A stretch of DNA of 64,000 bases from Raillietiella orientalis (Eukaryota): contig JAYWIR010000136.1 in assembly GCA_036172245.1 (NCBI GenBank), forward strand, positions 1 through 64,000, in the 5' to 3' direction. The notes under the pieces were generated by a model. The model did no database searches. It had not been told where the DNA came from and worked only from the letters and a program-made list of their open reading frames with translations. Below, one piece after another: positions 3,936 through 59,842 of this stretch; within the stretch, counting starts at the first letter, position 1; the number at the start of each line of letters is the position of its first letter. A program made the translations under genes and the position numbers.

Positions 3936-4033
3936 ACCTGCGCCGGTACCACACGCGTTTTTGGTCAGCTCTCGAGAGCGAAGCCAAGACTAGGTGTTGT
4001 GTTGATTGGAAGTGCGGCCGTTCGAAGGCAGAA

Positions 4034-12500: not shown

Positions 12501-12525
12501 GTCCCAGTCGTTGAGATTCCGGAGC
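9509..12525 (-). mobile_element. 3' two-thirds of an element (subfamily C), degenerate ORF2 ending at 9717
   Basis: KAPGEDG, WRPITIVN, DLHKAFD, YVDD and the CARCGE zinc finger; 3' UTR and terminal hairpin. Confidence 0.88.
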
Positions 12526-14431
12526 GTCGAGCGGACGTGTCTTTTCGTTGCTATTGAGTTCCATTTCCGTTGGTGGTTGTGCGTGGTGTGGGTGGAGGAT
12601 TAGGCAGAAATGCCTGATACCACCACCGGTGAGAATCCGTGGGCGATGACCTCATTGCCCCCGGAGCAGATGGAGGTTGGAGCTCCCGCATCAGTGGAGG
12701 CTCCCGCCAGCACGGATGCGCCCCCGGCTCTACCCAGGGCTTGGAACGCCGTGGCTGCGGCACCTACGCCAGCGGCTATGGCGGAAATGCGCGCTTACCT
12801 GGAGGAGGGGTATAACCAACCCCTTCTATATAAGGTAGGCGGTCTATATTCTCCCGAGAACGCGCGCGCCTTCTCACAGGCGATGCGCGTTCTCGGCGTA
12901 CAGAAAGAGGAGCTTCTGGCTATGTCCGTCAGAAGCGGCAGTCAATTTGTGGAAGTTATCTGCAAAGAAGCAACTCTTGCGCAGAGACTTCTGCGAACCC
13001 CCGTAAGTATGGGCAGCCGGAGGCTTCTCCCAATAACTGAAGACCGGTCGGTGATCATTCACCTGACCGGTATCACGTTCCGGATGACGAAGGAGGCCGT
13101 CCGGAACGAATTGGAAAAATTCTTAACTGTCCACGCGCTGTGGGGAAAGCCTACTCCTTTTGTCGATTACGACGGGTTGCCTGGCGGCCTGGGTGCAGCG
13201 CGAGTGACGGTTCGCGAGGGATGTGAGATTCCCCACAAACTCACCGTCAACGGTGAATCCGTTGACGTGTGGTACGTAAGGAAACCCAAGTTTTGCGGCT
13301 GCTGCAGCAGCTTTGGTCACCTTAAAATGAGGTGTCCGAGAGTGCAGTGCCAGCAATGCAAACAAGCGGGGCACACCCGTCTGTTGTGCCCCTAAAACAC
13401 AGTCCGCGTCGTGTCCGCGAAAAACGCGAGAAAGCGCGCGGCAAAAAAAAGAAATAAGCTGGCAGTTCGTGCTGCTGCTTAGGAGGTCACCTCCGCCACC
13501 AAGTCGAAGGCCAGCCCCGAGACTTCGGCGAAAAACGCCGAAAAGGTCGAGGGCGAGGGTCAAGAGCCAGGGTGGCAAAAGGTCGACCCCAAGAAAAACT
13601 CCCATAAGAAGGGAAAGAACGTGGCGAATCGGAGTGAAACCGCTCTGCGCCGCGATAAAATTAAAAGCTGCTGCGTCGTTGTAGAGCGGATTCCCGCCAT
13701 CGACGAATGCGGCGCTAAAGAACTCGCTGCTGCCGCTGCTCAACCCTCCGTTGACAAAGTCAACAAGGAGGGGAGCGAGGCGGCGGCGTCCGTCATCGAG
13801 CCCACGCTCGATGACGTCGCCTTCGAGCACGCCGCGGAGGAGCTGGCTGCCTCGTTGCAGCCGGTTGCCCCCAAGGCTGGCAAGAAGGCCGTCAGGCGTC
13901 CGGCTTCCCCTCAGGATTCGGCCACTTCCGACCCCGAGGTGAAGGCCGGAAACGCAGCATCCATCTCCGCGGCACCCCGCAAAAAGGCAGGACGAAAGTC
14001 CACAATGCCCCGGAAGATCGTCTCCCCCGACGAAGGGGAAGAGATGGCTTCCGGTAGCGAGGGTGTCATGAGCGTGGGAAACTCCCGGGACCCGTCGCCC
14101 GAGAGAATTCCACGCTCGGACACGCAGGGGATGGTGAGGATGGAGGCCGAACAGGTACCCCAGGCGCCTAAAGAGGCCTCCGTCCTCGTTCCGATGGTCC
14201 TCGTACCGATGGACCTTTCGTACACCTGCCCCGCGGCAGGTGCCGCGACGGCACTTTCCCAGCCATAATGCCGGGAATCGCCTCTCGCCGTCGTCTTCTG
14301 ATCGCCTGTTGGAACGTGAACGGGCTAAGCGACGACGGCAAGAGGCGTGACGTGGCCGCCACCCTGGCATCCTTCGACCTGGTGCTGCTGCAGGAGATCC
14401 ACGTGATCTCCGCAGATCAAGCCTGGGAGAT
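12526..14431 (+). mobile_element. 5' part of an element (subfamily D): ORF1 and the start of ORF2
   Basis: GCGGACGTGTCTTTT 5' motif; TAATG ORF1/ORF2 overlap at 14266-14270; interrupted at 14432. Confidence 0.88.
12610..14268 (+). pseudogene. ORF1 with premature stops
   Basis: MPDTTTGE start; CGCCSSFGHLKMRC and CQQCKQAGHTRLLC knuckles; in-frame stops at about 13393 and 13480. Confidence 0.88.
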
Positions 14432-14786
14432 TTCTCACCCGGTCACGCCGGGGCGTTTATTCCATATAACATAACCAAAAAAAAAGCAATTATACAAAAT
14501 AAACCAGTTGGGAACCAAACTCCCAACCGACGACTGAACAAGAATGAAGAGAATATTGCTGGCACGCAGACCAGAGTAACAGTTTTGTGAACGGTGTGGG
14601 GGGGCGGGAAACACAAAGAAACCAAAATAAAATAAAAACAATGAATAAGGAGGACGGGATAAGGGTCTTTGGGATCGCTCTGGAAGACACGGGGATAAAA
14701 GCATGGGCACCGGAAATTTTACCGAGCGAACGGGGACGGGGTATGGGTGGGCGAGAGGTCGCAGGGGTCACCGGAATACGCCGTTC

Positions 14787-17700
14787 TCAAAGGTGTGTAA
14801 ACCGGCGATGTATGCCGGTGATGTCCTCATTCACCTTGTCACGAAGATGAGACCACCTTGAAGCCTTCTCCATGAATTGAGCTGCAAGCAGGTGAGCCTC
14901 CCTTCGCTGCGATGACAACTCCAGGGCGTAGCGGGCCTTCACGATGGCGCGAACGCAACACATGGTTGCGACAATCGCGCCAACCGAAAGTCCATTTCTG
15001 CTGAAGAAGCGCCGCAGCACATCAATGGCAGTGCCTCCTTGTGGCATGATGGCCAAAGTGAGCCTTCTCCATAGTTCCCGGAGGTCACCGCAGTCCAGCA
15101 AAAGGTGCGGAAAAGACTTGATCTCTCCGCACCTTTAACAGTTTGGCAAAGCAGCTCCCCCGGAAACGATGCTTCGCTGCCTATTACAGTGAAATGCACA
15201 ATGTAAAAAGAGCAGCACATCTTGTTTCCACTTTAGGGGGAACACGAAGCTGTCCAAACAAACGGGGGGAACCACTATCTCTCCGGGGAGCACACTTAAA
15301 TGTTCGCTGCACCGAAGCAGGCCCTTCGCTTGATTCCGAGGATTGGCGGCTTGCACCAACTCCTTTGTCGTCCAGCTGCCGAGCAGCTTACTGACTCCCG
15401 CTATTTTGCAGGAGAACTCCCTTTCCGCCGGTAGGCAACCGTCGTTGCTTTCCCTGAGGGCAGACAGAGCTGCGGCGAGTGGTGTGGCGGCCAGACGATC
15501 CGACATCTTCTTGTCCTGCATGATTTCGTCCATTTGATGACTGAGGAGAAGTCGCAGGCGCCGAAGATCTTCCGGGCTCGTTCTTTCGGAAGCTGCAACG
15601 ATGAAAAAGATTCCTGCCGCCATGCATTAATGTTAATGAGGGGGCAGAATTTGCAGCTTTGGGCTTCCAGCAATCAGGACAGCTGCCTTAGCGGAAAGCC
15701 AAACCCAATTCTGGTGTGCCGAAATCAGTCCCTGGCTTCACGAGCAGCGCCTCAGTATAAGGCGTGCGGGTGAGCACCACGGCGTACACCACAGCCTTCG
15801 CACACAGCAACAGCATGCGGAACTGCACCTGCAGTTCGATGCTGTTTAAGTCGAGGATGCCCAAGCCTGCATCCTGACGCGGCGCCACCAAGTCTTTAAG
15901 TCTAAAACGGAATCTAGCAGCGGCCCACAACGCTTTGCGTAGAAGTCGCTGCTCCCAGACTTTGACTTCCTGGGGGGGTGGACAAACAAAAAACAGGGGG
16001 CGGAGGAGGGGGGCAACGAAGGTGTTCCAGATGCAGGCCCGTTCCGGCAAGACGAACTCGCCTCCTGAAAACGGGCTAAGTGCACGCTCTGCCTTCCGAA
16101 GGCAGTCCGACCACGCTTCTGAGACGCAGAAGTCGCCCAACGGCACGCCAAGGTACCTGAGGTACCTGCCCGTGGGGATCCCCAGGTCGATCCAGTCGGA
16201 CTGCCCCTCCCACGTCGCACCAACCGGAACAACCATACACTTACTCCTGTTAACGCTCACGCCCGCACCCCGACGGATCAACTCAAAGAAATCTTCAAGC
16301 GACGCTGTCGGGGTGGACATGGGCAACAGGAGAAGCAGGTCGTCGGCATAGGCTGCCACGGCGGGCGTACCTCGACAGGAGCTCGGCAGGTTGGCTAGCG
16401 TCAGCCTGTAAGCCTCCAGCACCAATTCAAAATAGATGCTGAAGAGCAGCGGGCTTAAGCTGTCACCCTGCCTAATTCCTCGTCGTACCGGCACGCCATA
16501 CACGCGACAGCCACTGAAAACAATGGATGTAATCGCGTGGCGCCAGCAGGAGCGCAAGTACGCCAACAGGGATGCCGGAAGACCCAGACGTTCCAAAAGC
16601 TCAAGAAGAAGCTTTTGGTTCACGCAATCGAAAGCTTTGTGCAGATCGACTGCAACCGCCAAGGCTCCCGGTGTCTCCCTTTGCGTCCGGCGCCTCCGTC
16701 GGTGAGAGATCGAAGGCGTCGCTTCCGCACGACGATCCACCGCCACACGATGCTGCAATTGCAGCCATGTGCGGATGAACAAGAGATTCGCGTCCATGGA
16801 CCGCCCAGGAACAGCGTACGTCTGCTCCGGACTTACCAAGGATTGCGCGATCCTACCCATTTGCGCCACCCAAAGTTTCGAGAACAACTTGACGTCCGAA
16901 TTCACTAATGTGATCGGACGCCAGTTGTTCAGTTGGCGCAAATCTCCGCCTTTCGGCAGTAGACGCACCTTCGCTGAGCGAAACGAGGCGGGGACATCGC
17001 GCTTGTCTCGCATCAGCGACGAGAGCTGGAGCACCAGAGGGATGAGCTCCGCCGCAAAACACTGAAAGAATTCCGCGGGGAGCCCATCTTCGCCTGGCGC
17101 TTTTCGTCTCTTGAGCCCCGAGATGGCCGAGGAAATTTCCTCTGCCGTGAAGGGCTCATCAAGACGCGCGCGTTCCTCCTCGTCTACAACAGGTGCATCA
17201 ATCGGCAGAAGCAGCCGGGAGAGGCTGCGTTCCGTCGGTGCCTCTGCATACAGAGAAGAGTAATAGCGCCTGACTATCCGTCGCACGTCGGCTGGAGCCG
17301 AGCATTCCCGGTCCTGGTCGTCGAGCAGAACTGTCGCCCCTGACTGCCAGACCTGGCGCTCGGCCTTGGCCTTGTACTCGGATAATCGACCAACGTCCGC
17401 GCACCTGGAAAAGGAGCGGGCCTGCAGAAAATCTCTGCTGTTGGCTACGCCCTCTCCGAAGCCGCGCGGAAGCTGGTGCAAGGGAAACCGGCAGCAGAAC
17501 TCGCGGACCGATCTTTTCAGATCGTCCAAGTCCTCGAGCTCACTTATGGCAAAGCCGAGGAGGTACTGGCGAAGATGCTCAGCCGCCTCCGGGTGGCTTA
17601 GCCAGTCTGCCGGCATCCTCCAAAAACAGTTTGGAGGCCCCTTGCCTGGCGGGAGCAACTCGAACTCGAGCCTGTTGTGGTCTGAAAGCACGGACGGCAC

Positions 17701-18345
17701 GGGACCTCTCCGACCCACTCGACAGAGCAAGTGTTCATCAAGGTATACGTGGTCCGGCGTTGCTGCCATAACAGGGTCGCTAGCGAACAAGTTGCACGCG
17801 TGCACGGACGCGCACATCTCTTCCGGTAGCAACTTTTCCCTTTTGTGGGATCTATTCTCGGAAAGCAGGTGGACGTTAAAGTCCCCCGCAATGAGATGGG
17901 CCACAGTAGGGTGAGATCGAGTGAGCCACTGGCCTTGAAGGGTACCGAAGAACTCAATCCTTTCGGCCCATCGTCCAGCACAGCTCGGCGCGTACACGTT
18001 GGTTACGACAAGGTCGATCGAGTCGGACCACTTGAGTACAAGCTGTCCCACTCGGCCTTCCGTGTCGAAACGAACGCTGCGCACCGCTCCCGCCAAAGTT
18101 CCTCTCACGAGGAAAGCGACGCCGCACGTACGTGCAACGCCGCACCTATAAAGTAGCGTTCCGCCCGCGCGCCGTTCGATTTCGGCAGCCTGCTCTTCGG
18201 AGATGCTGTGAATCTCCTGCAGGAGCGTCAAGTCGAAGGCGCGCAGAGCGTCAGCCACTAGTCGCCTCTTCTCCTCGTGTTGGAGCCCGTTGACGTTCCA
18301 AGACGTTACGGCAACACGACGAGAAGACGCGATTGCCCTCATCAC
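14787..18345 (-). pseudogene. ORF2 (APE-RT-zinc finger); 885-aa open N-terminal part, frameshifted distally
   Basis: SWNVNG, GDFN, SDH, KAFD, QGDSLSP, YADD and RYLG motifs; C-terminus split across frames. Confidence 0.9.
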
Positions 18346-20246
18346 GGCTGGGAAAGCGAGGCCGTGGTGCTCGCCTCACCCGGCGAGCGGGCAGTAAGCA
18401 GCACGACGGGCTGGAGGGCGCGGTCGCCACCGGCCTCAACTGTGCTGCACGTAATCGGGTGCTCCTCCCCGGGTGCCGAACCTGTGGGTTCCGGGGTGAG
18501 CACTCGCCGTTCCGCGGCGAGTGTGTCACGCCTCAGGGCTTCAGCCCTGCGGGCGCTCGCTCCCGCGCGAGTTACGCGTCGTTCAGCGGCGTTATCGGAC
18601 TCCTTTGCGAAGTCTGATGCTCGCACGATCGACGTGCGCTTGCATCCGTCCGATTGCACCGGAATGGTCTTCTCGGCGGTCACAGAAGCGGACTTGCACG
18701 CGTTGAAGGCGTTGGCTTTTTCCTGGGAAGAGTCACAAGCCGCGCGTGTTTTCGTATTCGCGCGACTGCTTTTTCCTTTGGAAGAGCTCAGGGATGGAGG
18801 TTGCGGAGCTTTCTTTGGAGATTTTTCTTTCCTCCTCTCCACAACCTTCCATTCGCCTTCGCGATTTTCTGAAGCTTCCGCGACAGTAGTTGCGGAAACC
18901 TCCGGGATTTTCGCTGCGTTCTCTGGGGGCGTTGCTTTCGCTACGCCTTTAAAAGGCGGCAACGGAGTCACCTTCTTGACAGTCGGGAGATTGCTCCTCT
19001 CCTGCCGAGTCGGCGATGGGGCGACTGCATGCAGCGTGCTTTTGCTCGTTGCGACGCTGCTTTTTACGGCTTTCGTAGCCTTTGCAGTGGGGCCTGCGCT
19101 GCAGTGGGGCTGTCCGGAACTCGGAAGGGACAACGGAACGGGGCAAGAAGTCTTCGCACTGTTGCGATCTTCCTGTTTTCCTACCTTTCCCTCCAGGGTG
19201 TTACAGAGATTTCCTGGTTCCAGGTTCGGAAAGGTGCCTGCGAGTTCGGCAGAGAGGGAAGGCACGGCACGTGTCAAACCCTCGCGCCCCTTTTTAATTG
19301 GCTTCCCCGCCGTGACTTTCCCCTTTCGGGGCGTTGCGGGCGGGGATGCTTTCTTTTTATCCGCGGATCGCTCGTGGTTTTTTTCGAGTTTTTGCGGACG
19401 ACGTTTTTTATTTGCCGCTGCGGCTTTTCGTGCAGTGGTCTCTTGAACCCGACGAATTTCCGCTGCGGCTCTTTTTCTTGCAAGTACCGGGCACTTTTTA
19501 ATTTCGTGCCCGGAATCTTCGCAATAGCGGCATCTTGGAGAGGGCACTCTTGAATTCGGTGCCCCTCCTTGCCTCACTGCTCGCACGCGCAAGTCTGGCC
19601 TATGAACCACAGGTGAACGACCGTGCCGTTCACCTGCAGCTGCTCAGGCACAATACGCCTGTTCGCGACGGTGATCCGCGCGGAGGCTTGTCCAATGTGG
19701 ACAGAGGGGAAATCCTTAAGAGGATTTGGCCTCCTCCACAGAGCGTGCACGGTGGCGAACTTCGCCAGCACACTTACGACATCGCGGTCGGAGATTTCCG
19801 GTTCGATGTCGCACAATTGAACGACAAAAGAGTCGTCCATCGCGGTAGGTAGGACTTCCTTGCCATTGATGGTCAACGGCGTACGGAGAAGGCGCTGCAC
19901 AAGTGCTGCGTTCTTTGCACCGAATCTTCGTATATTCCATCCTGCCAGCAGGCATTATGGCAAGGAGTTCCTCCTCGCGAACGCCTATCCGGACGAGCTC
20001 ATCATTGAGCTCACGACCGATTCTCCCGTTAAGTGGCCCACTGACCTTATAACGGAGTACAGGCATGTATCCTGATGACACATATGCCTGGAACTCCGCA
20101 TCGCAGGGTCCTGGTCTTTGGGAGGTAACGACGGCGTAACTCCTCACCGGGGGCGAGGAAACCATTATGGAGGATGCGGCCACTTCAAGTGCAGCTGAAG
20201 TGCATCCAGTGGCTTGCTCCTCCACACTATCCTGTGTACTGGCCAT
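18342..20246 (-). pseudogene. ORF1, frameshifted
   Basis: MASTQDS start; GYMPVLRYKV motif; CRYCEDSGHEIKKC knuckle; TGATG overlap with ORF2. Confidence 0.85.
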
Positions 20247-20361
20247 GTTGCACTATGCTACTTGGCAGATTGCACAGGAACACACAAGTGCGAGCAAAAA
20301 CGCAGGCACAAAGTTGCCCGATCGTTGGCGCGGAAAGACGCGGAAACACGTCTGCACTGTA

Positions 20362-23300
20362 CGAGCGCAGGAGATCGAACGGATCTCGGGTGGGCGGCTG
20401 TTGTGGCGTTGCGGCACCGCGAAATCAAGCGGTGTCGCCTTCCTGCTTCGGCCAGCCATCGACACCGCAATAAAGGACGTTCGGTTCGATGACGCAGGTC
20501 GCGTCGGTCAGCTGACTCTCAGCTGGTCCGACTCTATCGACCTGGTCGTCACCAACCTATACGCTCCTAGCGGAAATAACGCGTTGAAGGCGAAGGCAAG
20601 AAGGGAATTCTACCTTGCCCTGAGACGCGATTGGCTGACCGATGCAGGAGTTCGCAAAGCGCACCTGATCGCAAGTGATTTCAACCTGCGCCTGCTTTCA
20701 GGTGCGCCGGATACACTGAACGACCGCGTCAACGAGTTGTGCGCAGAAATGAACACGCGCAACTTGTTGGCCGGGGACCCGGCCATGGAAAGCAGCATTG
20801 ATCACGTGTACTTTGATCAGCACCTATGCTCTCGGGTGGGCAGGCGCGGCAAGGTACCATCCGAGCTGTCGGACCATGGTCGGATCATGTTCGAAGTGCG
20901 TCCGCGCGACCAGGGCCCCCCCTCGTCAGCGTGGCGTCTGCCAGGGGACTGGCTGAAGTTTCCCGACGCGTCGGAGCACCTCCGCGCTTTTATTCGGAGC
21001 TTCAGGCTGCACACACTTCAGGACTGGGACCGCTTCAAGCGGTCGGTCCAGGAGTTCTGCGATCAGTTCCCCCTGCATCGCCTTCCTGCGGGGTTTGGGG
21101 AGGGCCCGCGTAACGAAAGGTGCTATCTTCAGGCCAGACGTTACGCGAGAACCCCCGACATGCGCAGGTTAGCAGAGTACCGAGCGGGAGCCGAGAGGCA
21201 AGCCTGGCAATCCGGATCGGCCAGCTTGCTGGACGACCAGGGCCGGGAGCACTCGGTTCCCGCTCAGAAACGCGGGATAGTAAGGAAATTCTACTCCTCC
21301 CTGTACGCCAGGGCGCCTCCGGAGCGAGACGTCTCAAGACTTCTGCTTCCGGAAGGTGCTCCAGCGATCGGGGAGGAGGAGAAAAGAAGTCTCGACGAGC
21401 CTTTCACGATGGACGAGATCCTGTCGGCCATCGGAAAGCTCAAGAGGCGGAAGGCTCCAGAGGAGGACGGCCTGCCCGCGGAGTTTTACCAAACTTTCGC
21501 GGCTGAGCTTACTCCCCTGGTACATCAGCTCACCTTGCTGATCCGTGAAACAGGTGACGTTCTTACCTCGTTTCGTTCAGCAAAGGTGCGGCTCCTCCCG
21601 AAGGGAGGAGACCTAAGGAGCATGAACAACTGGCGTCCCATCACAATAGTGAATGCGGACGCCAAGTTGATAGCCAAGATGTGGGCAGAGCGTCTGGGAC
21701 GGGTTGCCAACATCTTCATCAGCCCAGAACAGACTTATGCTGTTCCCGGGCGGAGCATGGAGGCGAACCTGTTCCACGCTTCCACATGGTTAGAGCTCCA
21801 ACAAGGAAGGGGCTTATTAAGCAGCCGGAATTCCGGTGCGTCCGTTGGCGGGAGACGGAACGGATGGGTGGGGAAGGAAGCCCTTGCGGTCGCTGTCGAC
21901 TTGCGTAAAGCATTCGACAGCGTCGACCAGAATCACCTGCTGGAGCTTCAGGAACGCTTAAGCTTCCCGGCCTCTTTGTTGGCCTACCTGCGCTCCAGCT
22001 GGCGCGACGCGCTCATTAATGTTCTTTTCAGCGGGCAAACCGTGCACGGAGTACCGGTGCGACGCGGCATACGGCAGGGAGACAGCCTGAGCCCCCTGCT
22101 CTTTAGCGCCTTTTTCGAATTGGTGCTGAGAGCGTACAGGGAGACTCTTGCGCACCTGCCGTGCGATTGCCCCGGTACGGATGCGGTTTCGGCGTACGCG
22201 GACGACCTTCTGCTGCTGCTGCCTATGTCCACCCCGGCCTCCGCGGTCGAGGACTTCTTCGACCTGCTGAGTCGTGGAACAGGACTGACGGTGAACAGGG
22301 CGAAGTCGTCCGTAATGCCAGTCGGAGCGGCGTGGGCAGGGCAGCAGGACTGGGTCCGTTTGGGGATCCCCACGGTGAGGTACTTCAAGTACCTTGGTTT
22401 GCCGTTGGGGGATTACTACCCTGCGGAAGCGTGGTCCGGCTACCTTTAGAAGGCTCAGGCGGCGATCGGCCCGTTCCAGGACGGCAGGTTCTACCTGCAG
22501 GAACGGGCCGCGGCGTGGAACGCGTTTGCGGCCCCCCTCCTTCGCCCCTTGCTTTTTGTTTGATCCCCCTCAGCGGAGTCAAAGAAGAGGACGAAGGACC
22601 TCCTGAGGATCGCCCTTTGGGGCAGAGGGAGGCCCCGAGTCCGTCTTTCGGACTTGTGCGCTCCTCGTCGGGATGGTGGTCTGGGCCTCCTGACGTTGGA
22701 GCGGCTGGATCTACAGCTCCAGTTCCGAGTTGTTGCCTTTATGGCAGGAAATTGGTGCACCCCTTGGTGCCTCCCTGCACGTCTCCTCGTCGAGCGGGCC
22801 ACCGGCAATGCGGGACTCTCGTCCTAATTTGCACTCCGAAGCCCCATCTGCCACTGCGGACTTCAACTTCGGAGGGCGGCCAAGCTCGTGAAGAACAACT
22901 CGGCGCGGATCCTCGTGCGCCCCGCGAACGGTCCTGCCTGGTTGCAGGAAACCGTCCGCATGTGGGCGATGATTCAGGAGCAGAGCCCGCAACACGAGCG
23001 AATAGCTCTGTTCGGGCCGCATGCCCGCCGCACGCTCCGAGAAATCATCGAGAATCCCCGAAGGAGAGCGTGGGCACAAAGAACCTCCCTTGCTGCGGTA
23101 CTGCCTACCCTACGGGAACATCTGGGCAGCGACGTCGCGGCACAATGGGAGGTAACTGTGAAGATCGCCAGCAGGGCAAAGAAGATCGGGGATTGCAGAA
23201 CGGGTCAGCTCACCAACGCTGCGACCCCGAGGACCACCCCAAATGAACTTTTGCGCTGGGGAGAGCTACTGGATGTTCCAGAGGAACATCTCGAGTGGCC

Positions 23301-23793
23301 TCCGGTGCTCATGGACTCGCGCACCCTCCCCATGAAGTGGCAACAGTCGGCACTGATGGTGTTGCATTGGGGGCTTCCTTGCAACGCCCGCCGACACCAC
23401 TGGACGCGGGGGGGTGTCAACCCTAATTGTGTCAGGTGCGGGGAGAGGGAATACCTCCCCCAACTGTTAGTGGATTGTGTTGCCCTCCGTCCCTTGTGGG
23501 AACGCTTTGCCGCAGCCCTGGGGATCCCCGGAGGCAACCCCAGAGACGCTTTGCGCCCCCTCTTCGTCCGTGACGCCCTGCCTCCAGCGGCCTCGCTTGC
23601 AGCCCTGTGCTGCCTACGCGGGATCGTCGTGGCATGGAGCAAAGCGACGGCAGGATCCAGCGACAGGGATGCCAACGTGTATGCTGCCCGTTTCATCAGG
23701 ATGGCGACGCGATGGCCCCATCTGGAACCACACAAGCAGAAACAGCTTGCCGGCATCCTCCAGAGGATGACGGACCCTCCCAGCAGACTGTGA
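20362..23793 (+). pseudogene. ORF2 (APE remainder, RT, zinc finger) with stops
   Basis: SDH, YADD and CVRCGE motifs; stops at about 22447, 22561 and 22825. Confidence 0.9.
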
Positions 23794-24007
23794 TCCCTTC
23801 GCGCTCCCTTCCTGATTTTTGTTTATTTTTTGTTTTCTTTTTGTTTCGTTCCCCTCCCCGCTGCTGCCGAGGTCGACCGCGCCGGTCTGCGCACCGGTAG
23901 CCCGGCAGGCTATATCTTTCCAGGGCGTGGCTGGACTACTGGTCCAGTCACAGATTGTATAAGTTTATTCGTGAGAATAAACGTCCCGGCGCACCCGGGT
24001 TTCAATG
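20362..24007 (+). mobile_element. ORF2 and 3' UTR of an element (subfamily E; probably the continuation of 12526-14431)
   Basis: APE resumes at AQEIERI; ends ataaacgtcccggcgcacccgggtttcaat. Confidence 0.85.
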
Positions 24008-24020
24008 GAGATTCCGGAGC

Positions 24021-25174
24021 TCGAGGGCACGTGTCTTTTAGTTGCTCCTGAGTTCCATTTCAGTTGGTGCTTGTGCGTGGTGTGGGTGGAGGATTAGGCA
24101 GCAATTCCTGATACCACCACCGGTGAGGTTCCGGGGTCGATGACCTTATTGCCCCCGGAGGAGATGGAAGTGGGGGATCCCGCATCAGTGGAGGCTTACG
24201 CCAGCATGGATGCGCCCTCGGCCCTACCCAGGGCTTGGAACGCCTTGCTGCGGCACCTAAGCCAGCGGCTATGACGGAAATGCGCGCTTACCTGGAGGAG
24301 GGGTATAACCCACCCCTTCTATATAAGGTAGACAATTTATATTCTCCCGAGAACTCGCGCGCCTTTTCGCAGGCGATGCGCGTTCTCGGTGTACAAACAG
24401 AGGAGCTTCTGGCTATGTCCGTCTGAAGCGGGGGTCAATTTGTGGAAGTTTACTGCAAGGAGGCAACTCTTGCGCAGAGACTTCTGCGAACCCCCGTAAT
24501 TATGGGCAGCCGGAGGCTTCTCCCATTACTGAAGACCGGTCGGTGATCATTCACCTGAACGGTATCACGTTCCGGATGACGAAGGAGACCGTCCGGAACG
24601 AATTGGAAAAATTCGCAACTGTCCACGCGCTGTAGGGAAAGCCTACTTCTTTTGTCGATTACGACGGGGTGCTTGGCGGCCTGGGTGCAGCGCGAGTGAC
24701 GGTTCGCGAGGGATGTGAGTTTCCCCACAAACTCACCGTCAACGGTGAATCCGTTGACGTGTGGTACGTGGGGAAACCCAAGTTTTGCGGCTGCTGCAGC
24801 AGCTTTGGTCACCTTAAAATGAGGTGTCTAAGCGTGCAGTACCAGCAATGCAAACAAGCGGAGCACACCCGTCTGGTGTGCCCCCAAAACACAGTCCGCG
24901 TCGTGTCCGCGAAAAACGCGAGAAAGCGCGCGGCAAAGAAGAGAAAGAAGCTGTCAGCTCGTGCTGCTGCTAAGGGGGTCACTTTTGCCACCAAGGCGAA
25001 GGCCAGCCCCGAGACTTCGGCAAAAAACGCCGAAAAGGTCAAGGGCGAGGGTCAAGATCCAGGGTGGCAGAAGTTCGTCCCCAAGAAAATCTCCCATAAG
25101 AAGGGAAAGAACGAGGCGAAACGGAGCGAAACCGCTCTGCGCCGCGAAAAAATTAAAAGCTGCTGCGTCGTTGT
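24021..25174 (+). mobile_element. 5' part of a subfamily D element, degenerate ORF1
   Basis: Homologous to 12526-13682; start codon mutated, several stops and frameshifts. Confidence 0.87.
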
Positions 25175-29988: not shown

Positions 29989-30095
29989 GAACGACGAGGA
30001 AGGTTGGCAAAAGGTAGAAAGGAAGAAGCCCCAGAAGAAGGAGGCAAAAAAGATAAACAAGTCGGCGCCGAAAAAGCAGAAACCGGTCGTCCGCG
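29989..30095 (+). pseudogene. ORF1 internal fragment (G-like)
   Basis: EGWQKVERKK...KPVVR, homologous to about 41225-41331. Confidence 0.75.
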
Positions 30096-38267: not shown

Positions 38268-38275
38268 TGGTGTTG

Positions 38276-44526: not shown

Positions 44527-44536
44527 CGCAGTGACG

Positions 44537-44550
44537 GCAGACGTGTTTCT
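44537..44550 (+). promoter_or_regulatory. Conserved 5'-terminal GACGTGT motif (representative copy); putative internal promoter
   Basis: Present within about 10 bp of the 5' end in most subfamilies. Confidence 0.5.
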
Positions 44551-44620
44551 TTTGCTGCTCCTGCGTTTTAGCGCGAGGTTGTAGGTTGTGTGGTGTTTGG
44601 GCGGTGTTTTGAAGGCAGAA

Positions 44621-46366
44621 ATGCCTGAGGACACCGCCAATGCGAAAAAGGGGGACGGGCGTGCCTTGTCCCCTCAGCCCATGGATGTGGGGGCCATCTC
44701 CCCCACAGATTCGTCCCCCGCCCCGGCGAGGTCTTGGAGTGCGGTGGTGGCGGCTCCCGCGCCGCCACCATGCGAGGAACAGCGGGCCTATGAGTCCCAC
44801 GGATATAACCCGGCCCTACTGTATAAGGTAGGTGGGCTTTATTCTCCCGCGATGTTGAGAACGTTTGCCGCGGAATTTAAAAAACTGAAAGTGCCGGAAG
44901 AAGAAGTTCTCGGCCTTTCCGTTCGCAGTGGCGGTCAGCTAGTGGAGCTGAACTGCAAAACTGCAGGAATGACTCAGCAGTTGCTGAGATGCCCGGTGAC
45001 CGTGAACGGGAGAAGGATCTTCCCGTTTACTGCCGACAAATCGATCGTCATCCACCTTACCGGGTTGACGATGCGAATGGCGAAAAATGCCGTTAGGCAG
45101 GAACTGGAAAAGTACGGTACCTTCCACGCTCTGTGGGCTAAGCCGAACACCCTGGGCTATACTAGGGCGTTCAGTGGCTATGCCGCCGCGCGTGTGACAG
45201 TCCGCGAGGATAGTGGTTTACCCCACCGACTTCAGGTCGATGAAGAATACATTGATCTGTGGTACATAGGGAAACCCAAATTTTGCGGAAACTGCGAGAC
45301 TACAGGGCACCTTAAACGGAGGTGCCCCAACATCGTGTGTCTACGCTGCGGTAACAAGGGGCACGTAAGAAAGGTGTGCCCTCTTCGTTTTGCTTCCACT
45401 CCTGTTGGCAACAAGAGAACAGAGTCGCCACAGGAACCGGACAAACAGGATCCCCAATCGAGTGAAACCTCCCAGACAGGCGAGATATCGACGCCAGTGG
45501 AACAAAGACCGGAGGAAGGCGAAACTGTCGCCGAAAACAGTTGGCAGTTGGTGAAAAAGAAGGAAAGCAAAGGGAAAGGTAAGGCCCCCAAGAAAACGGT
45601 GAAAATGGTGGCAAAAACCGTCCGCCGTTCCACCGTGCACATCGATCGCGTTCCCGCGAAGGCTTCCACCAGCAAGCCATCGATCGATACCGCACCCGCG
45701 GCGTCGATCGATAAAGCGGTTCCGGCTTCGTGCGGCGAAATCGCTACGGTCGCGATCGATAGCGCGGCACACGTTGCCGCGAGCGAATCTATTGTTCCAG
45801 TCCAGTCCACTGGAAGCGTTGTAGCGGCGAGCGAAAGCTCAGCCGCTGCGGTTCCGAACGATAGCGCGCCAGTTGCCGCTATCGAATCGGTTCTTACGTC
45901 ACCCGACTCGCCAACAGGCGGCGAAATCCGTGATGACGTGAAACGCATCTCTGATGCAAACTTCGCGCAAGCCGCGGAAGAGTTGGCTGCCTTCCTGAGG
46001 CAGCCCTTCAAGGCCGAGAAGAAGGCCGTTCGACGCCCGGCTACGGCAAAAGACCCGGAAACCTCCGAGTCTGACGCCGAAAGCGGGAACTCGCCCTCCG
46101 TTGGCTTGCCGAAAAGAAAACATAAAAATGCAACAGCTGTTCGTAGGCGTGCTGTCACCTCTCAGGAAGAGGTTGAAATGGCATCTGACAGCGAGGAAGA
46201 GTCCATGTGCGTTGCACAATGCGACTCCGTGCCTGAGAGCATCCTTTACCAACTGTTAACACAGTCCACGGCCGACGGAGTGAGCGATGCCCCTGAACAC
46301 TCCAACGACATGCACCCAAACCACCCGTCTTCTGAACAGGAGGCGGTTTCTTCCACCCCACCATAA
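44621..46366 (+). CDS. Intact ORF1 nucleic-acid-binding (gag-like) protein, 581 aa
   Basis: GCAGAAATG context; knuckles CGNCETTGHLKRRC and CLRCGNKGHVRKVC; low-complexity C-terminal half; no interruptions. Confidence 0.88.
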   Translation: MPEDTANAKKGDGRALSPQPMDVGAISPTDSSPAPARSWSAVVAAPAPPPCEEQRAYESHGYNPALLYKVGGLYSPAMLRTFAAEFKKLKVPEEEVLGLSVRSGGQLVELNCKTAGMTQQLLRCPVTVNGRRIFPFTADKSIVIHLTGLTMRMAKNAVRQELEKYGTFHALWAKPNTLGYTRAFSGYAAARVTVREDSGLPHRLQVDEEYIDLWYIGKPKFCGNCETTGHLKRRCPNIVCLRCGNKGHVRKVCPLRFASTPVGNKRTESPQEPDKQDPQSSETSQTGEISTPVEQRPEEGETVAENSWQLVKKKESKGKGKAPKKTVKMVAKTVRRSTVHIDRVPAKASTSKPSIDTAPAASIDKAVPASCGEIATVAIDSAAHVAASESIVPVQSTGSVVAASESSAAAVPNDSAPVAAIESVLTSPDSPTGGEIRDDVKRISDANFAQAAEELAAFLRQPFKAEKKAVRRPATAKDPETSESDAESGNSPSVGLPKRKHKNATAVRRRAVTSQEEVEMASDSEEESMCVAQCDSVPESILYQLLTQSTADGVSDAPEHSNDMHPNHPSSEQEAVSSTPP

Positions 46367-46374
46367 CAACACCA

Positions 46375-49300
46375 TTGCGAGGAATCGCCTCCTCTAGCCG
46401 CTTGCGAATAACCTGTTGGAACTTCAACGGGTTGACGGCATGCTGGCGACGCGTCGGCGGGCGGTTGCCGCCGCATTCCTCAACTTCGACTGCTTCTTGC
46501 TGGCGCCTCACAACAAGCAGGCGGGGCCAAGTTTGAAAATCACGGGAAGAGGGCGCTGCGGCTACTGGCGGGAGGATGAACGAGACCACTCACCGCGAAT
46601 TGGCGCCTTTCTGCTGAAGCCGGCAGTCGAAAACTCTCTGCGTAGCGTTCGCTTCGACGTGGACGGTCGAGTTGGACAACTTGTTCTCAAGTGGTCCGAA
46701 TCGATCGACCTCGTTGTGACGAACATATACGCGCCAGTGAGCAACCACGGGGCCGAGGAACGCACTGCGTTCCTCGAATCCCTGCGGCGAGACTGGCTGG
46801 CTGAAGCGGACGTACGGAAGGCGCACCTCATTGCGGGCGATTTCAATCTCCGCCTGCTAGCAGGTGCACCCAACCGACGAGCACAGCTGGTCAACGAGTT
46901 GTGCGCAGCAATGAATGCACGCAACTTGTTGGCCGGTGATACCGGGAGAGATCGGAACATCGATCACATGTTTCTCGACAACCACCTGTGCACGCGGGTG
47001 GGAACTCGTGGAACGCTCCCGGCAGAGCTGTCCGACCATCCACGGCTCGTGCTCGACCTACATCCGCGCGACAAGGGTCCTCCCCTGAAAACGTGACGCC
47101 TGCCAGGGGACTGGTTCCGCCTCGCAGGAGCGGCGGAACATCTGCGCGCCTTCCTGCGAGAATTACATCTTCAGTCGCTCGCGGACTGGGACGAAATGAA
47201 GTACTCAGTCCGCGAGTTTTGCGAACAGCTTCCCCTGGAGCGCCTTCCTCCGGGCTTCGGAGAAGGTGTCAGGAACGAGCGAGCCTACCTTCAGGCCCGC
47301 CGGTATTCCAGACGACCCGACGTTCGTCGCCTGGCGGAATTCAAAGCTGAGGCGGAGAGGCAGGCCTGGCAGTCAGGCTCGGCCTGCTTGCTGGACCATC
47401 AGGGCCAAGAACGCTCCAGCCCAGCTCAGGTAAGCCGCATCGTGCGGGAGTTTTATTCCTCCTTATACGCGCCATTAACACCCGAGTGCCAATTCGCGCA
47501 GCAGTTGCTGCTGGATGGGGCTCCCGCGATCGGGGAGGAAGTTTGTTCCAGGTTGTCGGAACCATTTACGGTGGCAGAGATTGTCTCCGCCATCAGTAAA
47601 TTAAAGACAAGAAAGGCACCAGGGGAGGACGGCCTGCCCGCGGAGTTTTACAAACACTTCGCGACAGAGCTGGCTCCCCTGGTGCTCAAGCTAAGTACGC
47701 TGATCCGCGAACACGGCGAAGTTCCCGCCTCGTTCCGATCAGCAAAAGTACGTCTCCTGCCGAAGTCAGGAGACCTACGCAACATTAGCAACTGGCGTCC
47801 CATCACAGTGGTGAATGCGAACGCAAAGTTGTATGCCAAATTGTGGGCTGAGCGTTTAGGACCGGTGGCGGATTCCGTGATCAGCCCGGAGCAAACATAC
47901 GCTGTTCCCGGGCGAACCATGGAAGCCAACCTGCTCCTCGCCAGCACATGGTGGCAGTTGCAACAGCGCTTTGCACAGGACGGTCAAGGGAGCCTTGAGC
48001 ACCCCTCTGACCAGAGAGACCCGGTAGAGGGTGGGGCGGAATCGGCGGGAGCCTTCGCCGTCGCTGTCGACTTGCGCAAAGCATTCGACTGCGTCGACCA
48101 GGATCTCCTTCTGGAGCTCCTGGAACGAATGGGATTCCCGTCCGTGCTCCAGTCTTACCTGCCCTCCTGCTGGCGCAACGCGTTGATTAACATTGTTTTC
48201 AGCGGCCGGCACGTGTATGGCGTGCCAGTGCGCCGCGGCATCCGGCAGGGTGACAGCCTGAGCCCCTTGCTCTTCAGCATCTACTTTGAGTTGGTGCTGA
48301 GGGCATACAGGGTAACTCTGGCAACCCTGCCGAGCTCGTGTCCCGGCACGCCTGCTGTGTCGGCCTATGCAGACGATCTTCTGCTGCTGCTTCCCGGGTC
48401 CACCCCGGCGAGTGCACTCGAGGACTTCTTCGAGTTGCTGCGCCGCGGGACGGGCCTGGAGGTGAACAGGGCGAAGTCGTCCATAACTTGTACCGGCTCG
48501 GCGTGGGCTGGACGGTCGGACTGGATCCGCTTGGGGATCCCCACGGGCAGGTGCTTTAAGTACCTTGATGTTCCGTTGGGGGAATTCTGCCTGACAGAAG
48601 CCTGGTCCGACCGTCTACAAAAGGCATCGTTGGCGATCGGTGCGTTTCACGAAGGCAAGTTTTACTTGCAGGAACGGGCCGCAGTGTGGAACGCGTTTGC
48701 GGTCCCCCTTCTACGCCCTTTACTTTTTGTGTGCCCCGCTTCTTATTTCGTCAGGAAAAGAGCAGCGGGCCTCCTACGGACAGTCCTTTGGGGCAAAGGG
48801 AGGTCCCGTGTGCGTCTTAAAGACTTGTGCGCTCCACGTAAAGACGGTGGACTTGGCCTACTTACGCTGGAGCGCATGGAAGTACAATTTCAGTTTAGGA
48901 CTCTCGCCCTTGCGGCGGAATTGTGGGACACGCCTTGGTGCGGTCCAGCACGACTTCTGGCCCAGCGAGCCTCAGGATATAGCGGACTTTCTTCGTTTCT
49001 CTGGGCGCGCGACCGCAGACAAGCACACTCCGGCTTTCATCTGCGGCGCATGGCCGTTGTGGTTCGGAAGAACACCTGGATCTCCTGCGTCCCAGGGAAC
49101 TACTCGGCATGGTTGCACGAGACAGTCTCCACTTGGGAAAAGCTTCACGTTCCGGCGGGCACAAAAAACACTTGCCTGAAAAGGCACGCCCGCTGGACGC
49201 TACAGGAGATCGTGCAGTCCCACGATCAGCTTCTGTGGGCCCTGATAACCCCGCTTGCTCCTGTGCTGCCCTTCCTACAAAACGCTAGAGACAACAGGGA

Positions 49301-49937
49301 GCAGGGGAAATGGACCGTATCCTGCACCATCAAAAGTAGGACACAAAAGATTAAGGCGTGGACATCTCGGCAGCTAGCGGACGCTGCGACGCCGAGTGTT
49401 CCGCCCAACGGAATCCGACGCTAAGGAGAGCTACTCGGACTATCTCCGGCGGAGATGAAGTGGCCCCCAGCGTCTTGGAATAGTGACTCTCTCCCCCTGA
49501 AATGGCAGGAGGTGGCGCTGCTCGTGATACATTGGGGTTTACCCTTCAAGGCACGCCTCTCTCACTCCACTCGGGGGGCTGTGGATTCCCAGTGCGACCG
49601 GTGCGGGGAGAAAGAGACATTCCCCCACCTCCTTATTGAGTGCATTGCTCTCCGCCCTCTCTGGGATCGTCTTGCAGCAATCCTGGACATTCGCGGAGGC
49701 GGCCCTAAAGATGTTTTTAGGCGACTCTTCTTGCGTGATGCCTTGTCCCCTCCCGCTACTGTGACAGTTCTTTGCTGCATTAGAGGGATCGTGTCGGCTT
49801 GGAACGCGACAAGAAGAAGGCGCCAACCTTGCGGCAATGCTGTACACTGGAGTCGCCTTTTTGTGAGAAACATTTGCAGGTGGAGACACCTGGGTGCACA
49901 ACGGACGCAGCTGGTGAAGATCCTGAACAGGATCTAG
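46375..49937 (+). pseudogene. ORF2 of element I, disrupted
   Basis: Garbled APE start at about 46420-46610; stops at 47094 and 49422; RT motifs intact. Confidence 0.9.
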
Positions 49938-50196
49938 AGGACCTTTCAGCGTGCAATGTGATTCCCTTCCCGCCCTCCCTTCCCAAACATAAGTACTCCC
50001 TCCAACTTTTAAATTTTTTTTCTTTGTTTTGTTTTTTTCTTCCCGTTCCCGCGCGTTGGAAGGACCTCGCCGGTTTAGAACCGGCAAGAAGCAAGCTGCT
50101 TTGTGCTGAACCATCAGGTTCTTCACCCGAAAATTACATGTATTTTTATTTTTTTAAATAAATCCTCCGGCATATCCGGGTAAAAACGCAGTGACG

Positions 50197-54565: not shown

Positions 54566-54574
54566 ACGACCGTA

Positions 54575-54726
54575 TTTCCCATCCCCGCGCATCGGAAGGA
54601 CCTCTCCGGCACGGAGCCGGTAACCAGCAAGCTGTTATGGAGTGGTGAACCTTCGGGTTCGCCACGCGACAATTTTTCTGTTAGTTTATTTCTATGAAAT
54701 AAATGCCCCGGCACATCCGGGTGTGA
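54575..54726 (+). repeat. Tandem copy of the terminal ~150 bp of the 3' UTR
   Basis: Nearly identical to 54414-54565; separated by acgaccgta. Confidence 0.92.
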
Positions 54727-54737
54727 ACGACCGTAAA

Positions 54738-54926
54738 GTGAGAGGACGTGTTTTTCGGTGCTTCCGAAAACCGTCTTTTTTGCGAGTGTCGGTGTTTTTC
54801 TAGGTGCGGTCGTTCCTGGGCAGAAATGCCCGAGGACACCGCCACCACGGCGAAGGGGGGCGAGCGAGCCTCGTTCCCCCAACCCATGGATGTGAGGGCC
54901 ATCTCCCCCACGGATTCGGGTGTGAA
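54738..54926 (+). mobile_element. Subfamily G 5' end fused to a 10-nt 3' terminus (mini-element)
   Basis: Matches 40226-40405, then cgggtgtgaa at 54917-54926. Confidence 0.7.
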
Positions 54927-56309: not shown

Positions 56310-59167
56310 TCATCACTCGGGTACGCCCGGGGCGTTTACTAATAAACTTTACATGCGTGGTACAAGGCCCCACCACGGCCGTAAACACAGGACCTGTCGG
56401 GACATCGGGACGCAGCTTGGCGTGGCACTTCCCGACAGCGAAAGGGGATGAGGGGAAAAACAAAAAGAAAAATAAAGAAATAAAAAAAACAAAAAAAGTT
56501 TGGAGGGCAGGGTAGGGATCACTGGTCGCTGTGAGGAGGGCCCATCCTTCGAAGAAAGCCCTCGAGGTGTCTCCGCATATCTCCCAGTTGGGGCCATCCG
56601 GCAGCTCTTCGCAAGAAGCGCTGGGCATACGGGATGACATCCCTCGCCTGTGGACCCACTCCTTCGTTATTGGCGTCGCTCCATGCCGCCACGATGCCAC
56701 GGACGCAGCACAAGGCTGCGATGGCTGCGGCTGGCTGCAGGGCGTCCTTCACGAAGAGGGGCCGAAGAACGTCTCTGGGAATGCTGCCCGTAGGGAGCCC
56801 TCGGTTCGCCCCGAACCGTTCCCAGAGGGGTCGGATGGCAGCACAGTCCACAATAAGGTGAGGAAGCGACTCCCGCTCCCCACACCTGGCACACGCAGGA
56901 TCCACAGCTCCCCTCGTCCAGTGGAAGCGGCGCGCGTTGCAGGGTAAACCCCAGTGCAACAAAAGCAACGCCGACTCTTGCCACTTGAGGGGCAGGATCC
57001 TGGATTCCTTCATCACCGGGGGCCACTTCAGCTCATCCCTGGGGATGGCGAGCAGCTCGCCCCATCTTCTTAGTCCTCGCGGCTGGACGCTCGCCATCGT
57101 GGCGTCGGCCAGTTCTCCTGTTGTCCGGCCGCTGATCAACTTCTGGCGTCCCTCGATGCAGTAGGAGACTTGCCACCTTGGCGTCCGGGTGCTGTGAAGT
57201 GCCCTCCTTAGGAAGGGCAGCGCCGTAGCTAGGCAGGTCGTCTCTGCCCACGTGCATCTTCCTGGACTCTCCAGGAGATTCCGCAGCGTGCAGCGGGAGT
57301 AGGGGCTGCATCGAAGACGATTCCGCGTCTCGTGGCTTCTCTGGTTAACCACTGCCCACGTTCAATATTCTCCTCCAGCCAGACGGGGGAGTTGGCGGGG
57401 CAGCAAATCATCCAGATGTTCTCCTTGGCCAATGTTGCGATGCGCCCGAGCAGTAGGCCGCATCTTTGCATATTCCGGCCACGGCTCACAAGATAAGACG
57501 CGAGTCCATTGCACCGGGACACACGGCAGGCCAGGAGGCGGGCCGGAGTGCACCAATGGGTGCTCCACATCTTCGCTGCGATGGCGAGGCTTCGCCACCG
57601 CAGCTGCTTCTCCACGCGCTCCAGCGTCAGGAGGCCGAGACCGCCGTACCGACGAGGAGCGCTTAAGTCATCTAGAGGCAGACGTGGCCTCCCTCTGCCC
57701 CAGAGGGCGATGCGAAGTAGGTCCTTGGTCCTCTTTTTAACGTCACGGGGGACGGGGCACACTAAAAGCAGGGGGCGGAGGATGGGAGCCGCGAAGGCGT
57801 TCCACACCGCGACCCGTTCCGGCAGAAGGAACTTGCCTTCCAGGAACGGGCCGATTGCCAACTCTACCTTCTGGAGACGACCTGACCAGGCTTCTGCGAG
57901 GCAGAAGTCCCCTATCGGGACACCCAGGTACTTCAGGTACCTGGCCGTGAAGATCCCCAAGCGGATCAAGTCAGGCCGTCCGACCCACGTCGCACCCACC
58001 GGTACGACCGACGACTTCGCCTTGTTTACCCGCAATCCAGTCCCACGACTTAGCAGGTCGAAGAAATCCTCTACTGCGGCTGCCGGGGCGGACATGGGCA
58101 ACATGAGCAGAAGGTCGTCGGCGTATGCTGCTATGGCGAGCGTGCCGGGGCACGAGCTGGGCAGGGCAGCCAAAGTCACCCTGTACGCTTTCAGCACCAA
58201 CTCAAAGTAGGTGCTGAAGAGCAGGGGACTGAGGCTATCGCCCTGCCGTATGCCCCGTCGCTCCGGCACGCCGTACACCTGTTGGCTGGAAAAGACGATG
58301 TTGACAAAGGCATTGCGCCAGCATGAGCTCAGGTAGGAGAGAAGGAAGGGTGGGAAGCCCATGCGACCCAGGAGCTGCAACACTAGCTCCTGGTCTACGC
58401 AGTCGAACGCCTTGTGGAGATCAACGGCGATCGCTAGGGCTCCCTTCCCAGCCCGGGTATCCATTCCCAGCCCAGCTGGCGGTCCCAAAGTGGGGTTGCC
58501 AATGTTTCCCCCTGTTTCCTTCAGGCAAGGCTGCACATGGAACCATGTGCTCGCGAAGAACAGGTTGGCATCCATACTTCGCCCGGGAACAGCGTATGTC
58601 TGCTCCGGGCTAATTATGGAGTCTGCCACCTGTCCTCTACGCGAAGCTCACAGTCCAGCGATCAGCTTGGCGTCCGTATTCACATTTGTGATCGGACGCC
58701 AGTTGCCTAGGGATCTCAGGTCCCCTCCCTCCGGGAGGAGCCTCACACGGGCTGACCGAAACGAGGCGGGAACGTCGCCTTCGTCTCGGATCAGCCCGGT
58801 CAACTGGAGCACCAGGGAAGCCAGCTCTGTCGCGAAGCATTAAAAAAATTCCGAAGGAAGGCCGTCCTCCCCTGGCGCCTTACGCCTCTTAAGCCTTTTA
58901 ATACCGGCGAGAATTTCACCGGTAGAAAAAGGCTCGTCGGGGCTGATCCTCTCCTCCTCCCCTATTGCCTGGCCTCCGTCCGGAAGCAGGAGCCGCTTTC
59001 GGGGCAGGTGCCCCTATCTCCATGGGTACGGGGGACGTTCGCCCGGCCCCCACCCCACATTCACTAGTGGCGGGATCTGGCATTTCTGCCATCCCCCGAC
59101 CACTGATGCACCGCACTACACCAATAAAGTCGAACGAGTCAGAAGCGCGCAGAGAACACGTCTGAAC
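56310..59167 (-). mobile_element. Subfamily C element: 3' UTR, ORF2 RT and zinc finger (stop at 56519), joined near 58990 to a 5' end with ORF1 start at 59083
   Basis: YADD and CARCGE motifs; CAGACGTGTTC and GCAGAAATG at the right end. Confidence 0.85.
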
Positions 59168-59829
59168 GTCGGCACTGCTGGTGTTGCATTGGGGGCTTCC
59201 TTGCAACCCCCGCCGACACCACTGGACGAAAAGGGGTGTCAACCCTAATTGTGTCAGCTGCGGGAGAGAGAATACCTCCTCAACCAGTTAGTGGATTGTG
59301 TTGCCCTCCGTCGCTTGTGGGAACGCTTTGCCGCAGCCCTGGGGATCCCCGGAGGCAACCCCTGAGACGCTTTGCGCCCCTTCTTCGTCCGTGACGCCCT
59401 GCCTCCAGCGGCCTCGCTTGCAGCCTTGTGCTGCCTACGCGGGATCGTCGTGGCATGGAGCAAAGCGACGGGAGGATCCAGCGACGGGGATGCCAGCGTG
59501 TATGCCGCCCGTTTCCTCAGGATGGCGACGCGATGGCCCCATCTGGAACCACACAAGCAGAAACAGCTTGCCGGCATCCTCCAGAGGATGACGGACCGTA
59601 CCAGCAGACTGTGATCCCTTCCCGATCATTCCCTGATTTTTGTTTATTTTTTGTTTTCTTTTTGTTTCGTTCCCCCTCCCCTCTGCTGCCGAGGTCGACC
59701 GCGCCGGTCTGCGCACCGGTAGCCCGGCAGGCTATATCTTTCCAGGGCGTGGCAGGACTACTGGTCCAGTCACAGATTGTATAGGTTTATTCCTGAGAGT
59801 AAACGTCCCGGCGCACCAGGGTTTCAATG
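59168..59829 (+). mobile_element. 3' fragment of subfamily E
   Basis: Homologous to 23346-24007. Confidence 0.9.
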
Positions 59830-59842
59830 GAGAATCCGGAGC

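Follow-up and report, generated by a model that had tools for sequence, protein, structure and literature searches.

A LINE tandem with a 13-bp target-site duplication in its junction, in a LINE-only stretch of Raillietiella orientalis

Sequence-specific long interspersed elements (LINEs), e.g., R2 and Tx1L, target repeated genes or other transposons. The 3' tail of Zepp, a LINE of green algae, is reportedly poly(A), a description said to go back to Higashiyama in 1997. McGurk and Barbash (2018, PMC5932611) describe how R1, jockey, and P elements form tandem dimers through double insertion, with a target-site duplication (TSD) in the junction; they propose such dimers of transposable elements as satellite seeds and also mention the telomeric head-to-tail LINE arrays of Drosophila, HeT-A and TART. 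For the L1-type Zepp/ZeppL clusters of green algae, Craig et al. (2021, PMC8226300), with reference to Higashiyama 1997, describe nested insertions that target existing copies and thereby create tandem arrays. The current study concerns a 64,000-nucleotide stretch of Raillietiella orientalis (GenBank assembly GCA_036172245.1, contig JAYWIR010000136.1, positions 1 to 64,000 of the forward strand; "the window," to which all counts refer unless another data set is named), which consists throughout of nested fragments and full copies of APE-type non-long-terminal-repeat (non-LTR) retrotransposons and contains a tandem of one LINE family, termed D. Two copies, D1 and D2, lie head to tail with exactly one copy of a 13-mer, GAGATTCCGGAGC, between them and another in front of D1. 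The 13-mer is target DNA, and we lean towards the reading that D1 was inserted there by target-primed reverse transcription and that a second D was then nicked in at the same bond, a double insertion resulting in a D-TSD-D dimer.

About 30 LINE segments in both orientations cover the window in an nhmmer map for which a full-length copy, X (44528-50187), served as the ruler; element positions are given on this reference element X. A pattern search confirmed the locations of the 13-mer reported by the first-pass annotation of the window: it occurs exactly, on the plus strand, at 12513-12525 and 24008-24020 and with one mismatch (GAGAATCCGGAGC, plus strand) at 59830-59842. With up to two mismatches, seven matches were found versus 2.43 expected, a number reached in none of 100 shuffles, and the two-mismatch matches at 18797 and 41390 are within chance expectation. 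All three 13-mers are followed by the same 5' end, that of family D (motif GACGTGTCTTTTCGTTGC, three matches at up to three mismatches versus 0.07 expected), and one 3' end, ...CCGGGTTTCAATG, stands in front of both the 24008 and the 59830 copy.

The origin of the 13-mer can be traced at its left copy, where the frame of open reading frame 2 (ORF2) of a resident minus-strand LINE, C1, runs on into it. Read on the minus strand (antisense GCTCCGGAATCTC), it encodes LRNL in frame with the NDWD of ORF2, and the same place reads LQSLADWD, LQTLADWD, or LHTLQDWD in other copies, which bears out the previous interpretation of LRNLNDWD as host ORF2 equivalent to LQSLADWD. The antisense strand of C1 was compared, codon anchored and ungapped, with eight other ORF2 copies: 29 to 38 of 48 positions match on the host side of the site, 7 to 10 of 13 within the 13-mer itself (closest is copy P4 with 10/13, reading CCTCCAGAGTCTC), and 4 to 10 of 38 beyond it on the D side, the last being chance level, while the probability of a match of at least 10/13 by chance is 1.3e-4. 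As judged from these alignments, the 13-mer at 12513 is host DNA, the ORF2 homology passing through it and ending at its D-side edge. A gapped tblastn alignment that would carry the homology past the 13-mer into the 5' end of D (HVRSTLR versus HLRAFIR) was ruled out by the ungapped comparison. The family with the most similar ORF1, M1 (53% amino acid identity), lacks the 13-mer upstream, and its alignment to D does not begin before 12529.

The element between the two exact 13-mers, D1, is a single copy of ~5.5 kb interrupted by N1, a full-length LINE from a different family that is nested in it in antisense orientation, since its ORF2 stops at about codon 57 (14431) and resumes at about codon 52 (20364) with a complete minus-strand element between. 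Because exact copies of the 13-mer sit just outside both termini of D1, those at 12513 and 24008 are its TSD, as the first-pass annotation had surmised; other duplications in the window measure 12 bp (C3), ~12 bp (N1), 9 bp (X), and 7 bp (B), so that a length of 13 bp fits the range. The same annotation had described an element E whose 3' end is followed by the 13-mer and the 5' end of an element D. The arrangement stands, and the division into two elements does not: "D" represents the 5' part and "E" the 3' part of a single family, and the two should be merged in annotations, which turns the E-13-mer-D configuration into a D-D tandem junction. N1 itself has an open ORF2 of 885 amino acids (15688-18345) and an imperfect flanking duplication, AGCCTGGGAGAT at 14420-14431 versus AGCGCAGGAGAT at 20364-20375, with 9/12 positions matching and the mismatches confined to three adjacent bases (CTG versus GCA); one idea is that the 3'-side copy was derived from an RNA read-through tail.

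D2 starts directly after the 3' TSD copy of D1, the junction copy being identical to the outer copy at 13/13 positions, and the remainder of D2 beyond ~25174 was not found in the window. The other D junction, E3-D3, likewise joins members of one family head to tail (5' regions 92 to 93% identical, 3' regions 94.8%). Across the 1.17 kb compared, the 5' regions of the three D copies show a star-like relationship, with 40, 45, and 43 substitutions private to one copy each. With ~3.6% change in each copy, two 13-mers would stay identical with P = 0.39, so that their identity is unsurprising. Relative to D1 and D3, the first G is missing from the 5' terminus of D2 and two of the first 14 nt are substituted, differences of the kind that independent insertions would be expected to produce. 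The coordinates of these and further features are listed in Table 1.

Table 1. Coordinates of the D-family copies, the 13-mers, and other LINE features of the window
Feature	Position	Strand	Remarks
C1, host LINE	9505..12512	-	ORF2 reverse transcriptase (RT) and C-terminal part, 3' hairpin end; X positions 2648-5546 (nhmmer, tblastn)
Left TSD copy, native C1 ORF2	12513..12525	+	Antisense codons LRNL; ORF2 comparison
D1, 5' part ("D" of the first-pass annotation)	12526..14431	+	5' untranslated region (UTR), ORF1, first ~57 ORF2 codons
N1, full-length LINE of another family nested in D1	14432..20363	-	Both termini present
D1, 3' part ("E" of the first-pass annotation)	20364..24007	+	ORF2 from about codon 52, RT, C-terminal domain, 3' UTR with double hairpin, tail TTTCAATG
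Right TSD copy of D1	24008..24020	+	Sole sequence between D1 3' end and D2 5' end
D2, second D copy, 5' 1.15 kb	24021..25174	+	Ended at ~25175 by the 3' end of a minus-strand LINE
Y>X stack	44528..50196	+	X (44537-50187) between exact 9-mers GCAGTGACG at 44528 and 50188
X2>B>W stack	54568..54735	+	B, 154-bp 5'-truncated copy (54575-54728), between 7-mers GACCGTA at 54568 and 54729
E3, 665-bp 3' fragment of a D-family copy	59165..59829	+	94.8% identical to D1 3' end
Third 13-mer, one mismatch	59830..59842	+	Between E3 and D3
D3, third D copy	59843..64000	+	Runs off the window; D segment 59843-61199 resumes at 63454-64000
C3, 5'-truncated LINE splitting D3	61200-63453	+	12-bp duplication with one mismatch: 61188-61199 CAAGTCTGGCAA, 63454-63465 CAAGGCTGGCAA

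Stacking of elements is not restricted to family D and is non-random in the window: 5 of 11 independent full-length 5' ends sit 0 to 13 nt behind a same-strand 3' terminus, where 0.02 would be expected (P ~7.5e-12, under a rough model that leaves out the copies in a 10-kb inverted duplication). This inverted duplication (30100-40112 / 44527-54562, 94.8% identity) holds a full-length element and a shortened one. The five stacks are P1>P2 (3937), D1>D2, E3>D3, Y>X (44527), and X2>B>W (54567). X sits directly behind the 3' terminus of Y, which ends at 44527, and directly ahead of the next element, and B is placed between the 3' terminus of X2, which ends at 54567, and the 5' end of W; for X and B alike, the position of the first-strand nick is that of the preceding element's 3' terminus. 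Since unlike families are joined in three of the five stacks (Y>X, X2>B>W, and P1>P2), unequal exchange provides no general explanation, whereas renewed nicking at an old nick site does.

Under double insertion, a LINE of family D would have entered the antisense strand of the resident C1 ORF2 by target-primed reverse transcription, with nicks 13 bp apart, and the staggered nicks would have copied the 13-mer to both sides of D1, which was split by the nested N1 later. The duplication would have kept the nick site whole behind the 3' end of D1, at the boundary between the D1 terminus and the regenerated target, and a second insertion whose first-strand nick fell on that same bond would yield D2 with one TSD copy in the junction. 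Re-nicking at resident 3' termini would likewise account for the other stacks in the window. The involvement of a second endonuclease cut rather than a later DNA duplication, as well as the order of D1 and D2, is what we infer, and the double cut is the most economical reading. It fits the four other stacks, three of which are composed of unlike families. The suggestion of the first-pass annotation that a TSD had been re-used, with elements piling up at one site, thus survives in part, as the most economical account of the D1-D2 junction, where a second cut is probable; at 59830, an independent re-use is no more than a possibility.

The third junction, at 59830, is of the same kind as the first, and three origins come into consideration: the same array torn apart by the intervening 34 kb of LINEs, unequal exchange, or a 5'-truncated copy of a dimer. 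If E3 is regarded as the missing part of D2, 3.8 kb of element coordinates separate the two pieces, and no duplication is common to both.

Several observations weigh against double insertion or blur its outlines. Within the window, the 13-mer accompanies every D 5' end (3/3) and every D-family 3' end (2/2), so that it is inseparable from the element on the basis of the D copies alone; the first-pass annotation had named a 13-mer on all D 5' ends, regardless of flank, as a finding that would refute a re-used TSD, and for the three ends in the window this is literally the case. When D is aligned locally with the leaders at the 5' ends of X, W, and V, the matches extend 6 to 7 nt into the 13-mer, and the border between duplication and element may therefore shift by a few bases, leaving at least GAGATTCC as target-derived. 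The 13-mer alone probably does not attract D, since two one-mismatch versions of it (GAGATTCCGCAGC, plus strand, 10473-10485 and 57275-57287), which correspond in position between the minus-strand elements C1 and C2, are without insertion. In terms of occupancy within the window, the single exact ORF2 site is filled (1/1) and the one-mismatch sites are not (0/2), and nine other ORF2 copies, all empty, show at least three differences from the 13-mer at the homologous site. Moreover, the equidistance of the D 5' regions fits an insertion burst and, equally well, rapid DNA duplication; no 13-mer is present on the left of E3 (~59165), where the edge abuts the 5' end of the minus-strand C2; and the right end of the array, i.e., a 13-mer followed by the rest of C1, lies beyond the window. 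Finally, with a duplication of only 9/12 around N1, the proof that the two D1 halves represent one copy is slightly weaker.

An alternative with the same outcome is a single D insertion with a 13-bp TSD, followed by an event between its two 13-mers, either replication slippage or unequal sister-chromatid exchange, that would have generated the dimer, with subsequent D-D exchange expanding it. This scenario predicts an identical D-13-mer-D structure, is in keeping with the equidistant 5' regions (40, 45, and 43 private changes), and would accommodate the third junction as an expansion product; for the R1 array of Drosophila, the treatment by McGurk and Barbash (2018, PMC5932611) likewise describes double insertion followed by expansion through unequal exchange. 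Its first step, however, requires recombination over just 13 bp, it cannot yield the stacks of unlike elements (Y>X, X2>B>W, and P1>P2), and it leaves the D2 5' terminus, which differs from that of D1 at 3 of the first 14 positions, as a point to the contrary, so that we regard exchange as unlikely to have founded the tandem.

A less probable explanation still, and in our view a doubtful one, is that the 13-mer travels on the D RNA, either as a 5' leader resulting from a transcription start 13 nt upstream in C1 or as a 3' read-through tail that assists annealing to targets; D copies would then have it irrespective of their surroundings. The presence of the 13-mer on every D-family end in the window, self-BLAST alignments between D copies that begin at its first base, and the three adjacent differing bases in the 3'-side duplication of N1, which look as if they came from another locus, would be compatible with such a transfer. 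Even so, the arrival of D2 and D3 precisely at a D 3' terminus would still be required, M1 as the family closest in ORF1 has no such leader, and the 5'-leader version would predict either a D1 without a 3' duplication of its own or two 13-mers in a row, whereas one is seen. A concatemer made in one event, with the RT either jumping between two D RNAs (5' end of the first to 3' end of the second) or copying a read-through dimer transcript, is highly improbable, given that a template jump would not account for the exact host-target copy in the D-D junction and a dimer transcript presupposes a dimer, even if the P1|P2 junction has no recognizable duplication between its termini, Y|X and X2|W would likewise have none should the 9-mer and 7-mer belong to 5' leaders, and the block 59165-64000 resembles a 5'-truncated dimer. 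Each of these alternatives to double insertion still requires stacking at the D 3' terminus or a pre-existing dimer.

The choice of ORF2 as an insertion site recurs in the window. At a site encoding LPPGF(G), 4 of the 11 copies that cover it have received an antisense insertion. Three 3' junctions (7868|7869, 9504|9505, and 56305|56306) each oppose a plus-strand ORF2 fragment and the 3' end of a minus-strand LINE, and at one 5' junction (~41583|41584) the ORF2 of Y begins against a minus-strand 5' end; the two junction types overlap by 7 to 12 nt. The hosts P4 and P5 are 65.9% identical and their inserts 93.0%, indicating independent insertions, and an origin of these ORF2 fragments with antisense elements as DNA duplicates of one composite was ruled out on the same grounds for P4|C1 versus P5|C2. 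In insertion orientation, the LPPGF(G) flanks (GAAACCTGGAGGA, GAATCCCTGGAGC, and GAAACCTGGAGAA) resemble the D target, and all five target sites have in common the loose pattern GAR, 1 to 3 nt, CC, 0 to 1 nt, GG, which suggests a shared loose target motif, albeit a short one derived from few cases. It is conceivable, and we offer this tentatively, that hairpin-tailed LINEs live on their relatives, with an endonuclease that would cut conserved antisense ORF2 motifs (L-x-x-L for D; LPPGF(G) in at least three independent events) and re-nick resident 3' termini, so that LINE-only islands would assemble themselves.

The LINEs of the window encode an ORF1 of ~590 amino acids with a weak CCHC knuckle and an ORF2 with Exo_endo_phos and RVT_1 domains and a C-terminal part of ~300 amino acids. 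Common to all families are a 5' end of the type g.gc.GACGTGT, followed ~100 nt on by ggcagaaATGcc, and a 3' end whose first hairpin encloses AATAAA and adjoins a second one, CCCGG(N4-5)CCGGG, ahead of a tail of 6 to 10 nt. At all 17 3' termini in the window, a short tail comes after the hairpin motif TAAAYGYCCCGGC....CCGGGT or a variant close to it, none of the 17 has poly(A), and three of five folded 3' ends gave folding z-scores of -2.6 to -3.4. Examples of termini with the conserved double hairpin are found at 23960-24007, 44480-44527, and 54520-54567. A protein search returned 39 matches, one of which was 63% identical and the remainder at most 31%. The closest of these proteins is encoded on a 2.9-kb metagenome contig (63% identity to N1 and 68.7% to the D1 ORF2), the matches at up to 31% identity are LINEs with APE and RT, some of them with zf-RVT, and a protein atlas contained only generic APE+RT clusters. 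A metagenome scan with the 3' hairpin pattern detected 71 loci, none of which had a tblastn match (E <= 1e-3) to the LINE proteins of the window; these candidates were discarded as relatives and look like unrelated hairpins. Similarly, a scan of contigs from prokaryote genomes with the D 5' motif yielded 17 loci, all with bacterial titles and none with a protein match; four seed-sized blastn matches of 20 to 33 nt were present in 3 of the 17.

Further rearrangements are visible around these elements. The segments 30093-33026 and 41587-44529 are 98.0% identical in inverse orientation. C2 (56306-59168) is internally deleted with its true 5' end kept, X positions 10-178 being joined to 2974-5656, and W (54736-56305), which also retains its true 5' end, consists of X positions 12-186, 77 nt, and then the end of ORF1 and part of the APE domain (1432-2735). 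Two 3' fragments of different families, at 29308-29991 (minus strand) and 59165-59829 (plus strand), are 75% identical and start at nearly the same element position (X 4965 and 4985). In addition, there are five head-to-head junctions (~1783, ~12525, ~27890, ~41583, and ~59165), each of which opposes a 5'-truncated element to a full 5' end on the other strand. Twin priming was ruled out as the source of the head-to-head pairs because the inverted partners bear 3' ends of their own.

At base resolution, the finding illustrates how a LINE tandem can start: a first insertion, by way of its duplication, keeps the cut site intact behind the element, where the next copy would land head to tail. Satellite arrays, and centromere-like regions built from LINEs, have been proposed to grow from such dimers. 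A choice of sites within other LINE copies by sequence is suggested by the cases described above and would, if true, explain why the region consists of LINEs only.

Among the described systems, HeT-A and TART resemble the window in their 3'-to-5' joining of successive elements. A telomeric array, formed by addition to chromosome ends, would show no target duplications and a single orientation, whereas the window has a 13-bp duplication in the D junctions, elements in both orientations, and nested insertions with duplications. With R1, R2, and Tx1L, family D would share a defined nick position, a fixed duplication length, and the repeated use of one site; unlike for those elements, a single occupied D site is visible in the window, and two sites with one mismatch are empty. 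The likeness to Zepp/ZeppL as characterized by Craig et al. (2021, PMC8226300) comprises a LINE-only region, insertion into or next to existing copies, head-to-tail arrays, and an ORF2 with APE and RT; the window is indeed a LINE-only cluster built by insertion into existing copies, with nested insertions and their duplications. In contrast to Zepp, the LINEs of the window end in a hairpin and a 6- to 10-nt tail, with poly(A) at 0/17 termini, and ~11 full 5' ends are present; the comparison is one of structure and not of phylogeny.

The closest correspondence is to the dimers of R1, jockey, and P elements as portrayed by McGurk and Barbash (2018, PMC5932611): one family arranged head to tail, with a target copy of TSD length in the junction, and, as in the R1 array on the X chromosome of D. 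melanogaster presented there, a non-LTR element with a preferred site. The D target departs from those in that account by being the antisense coding strand of another LINE's ORF2 instead of ribosomal DNA or a promoter, and independent insertion is here something that we infer. The D tandem of the window most likely belongs to the known double-insertion dimers, from which it is set apart by a hairpin tail in place of poly(A) and by a target within the coding sequence of another LINE.

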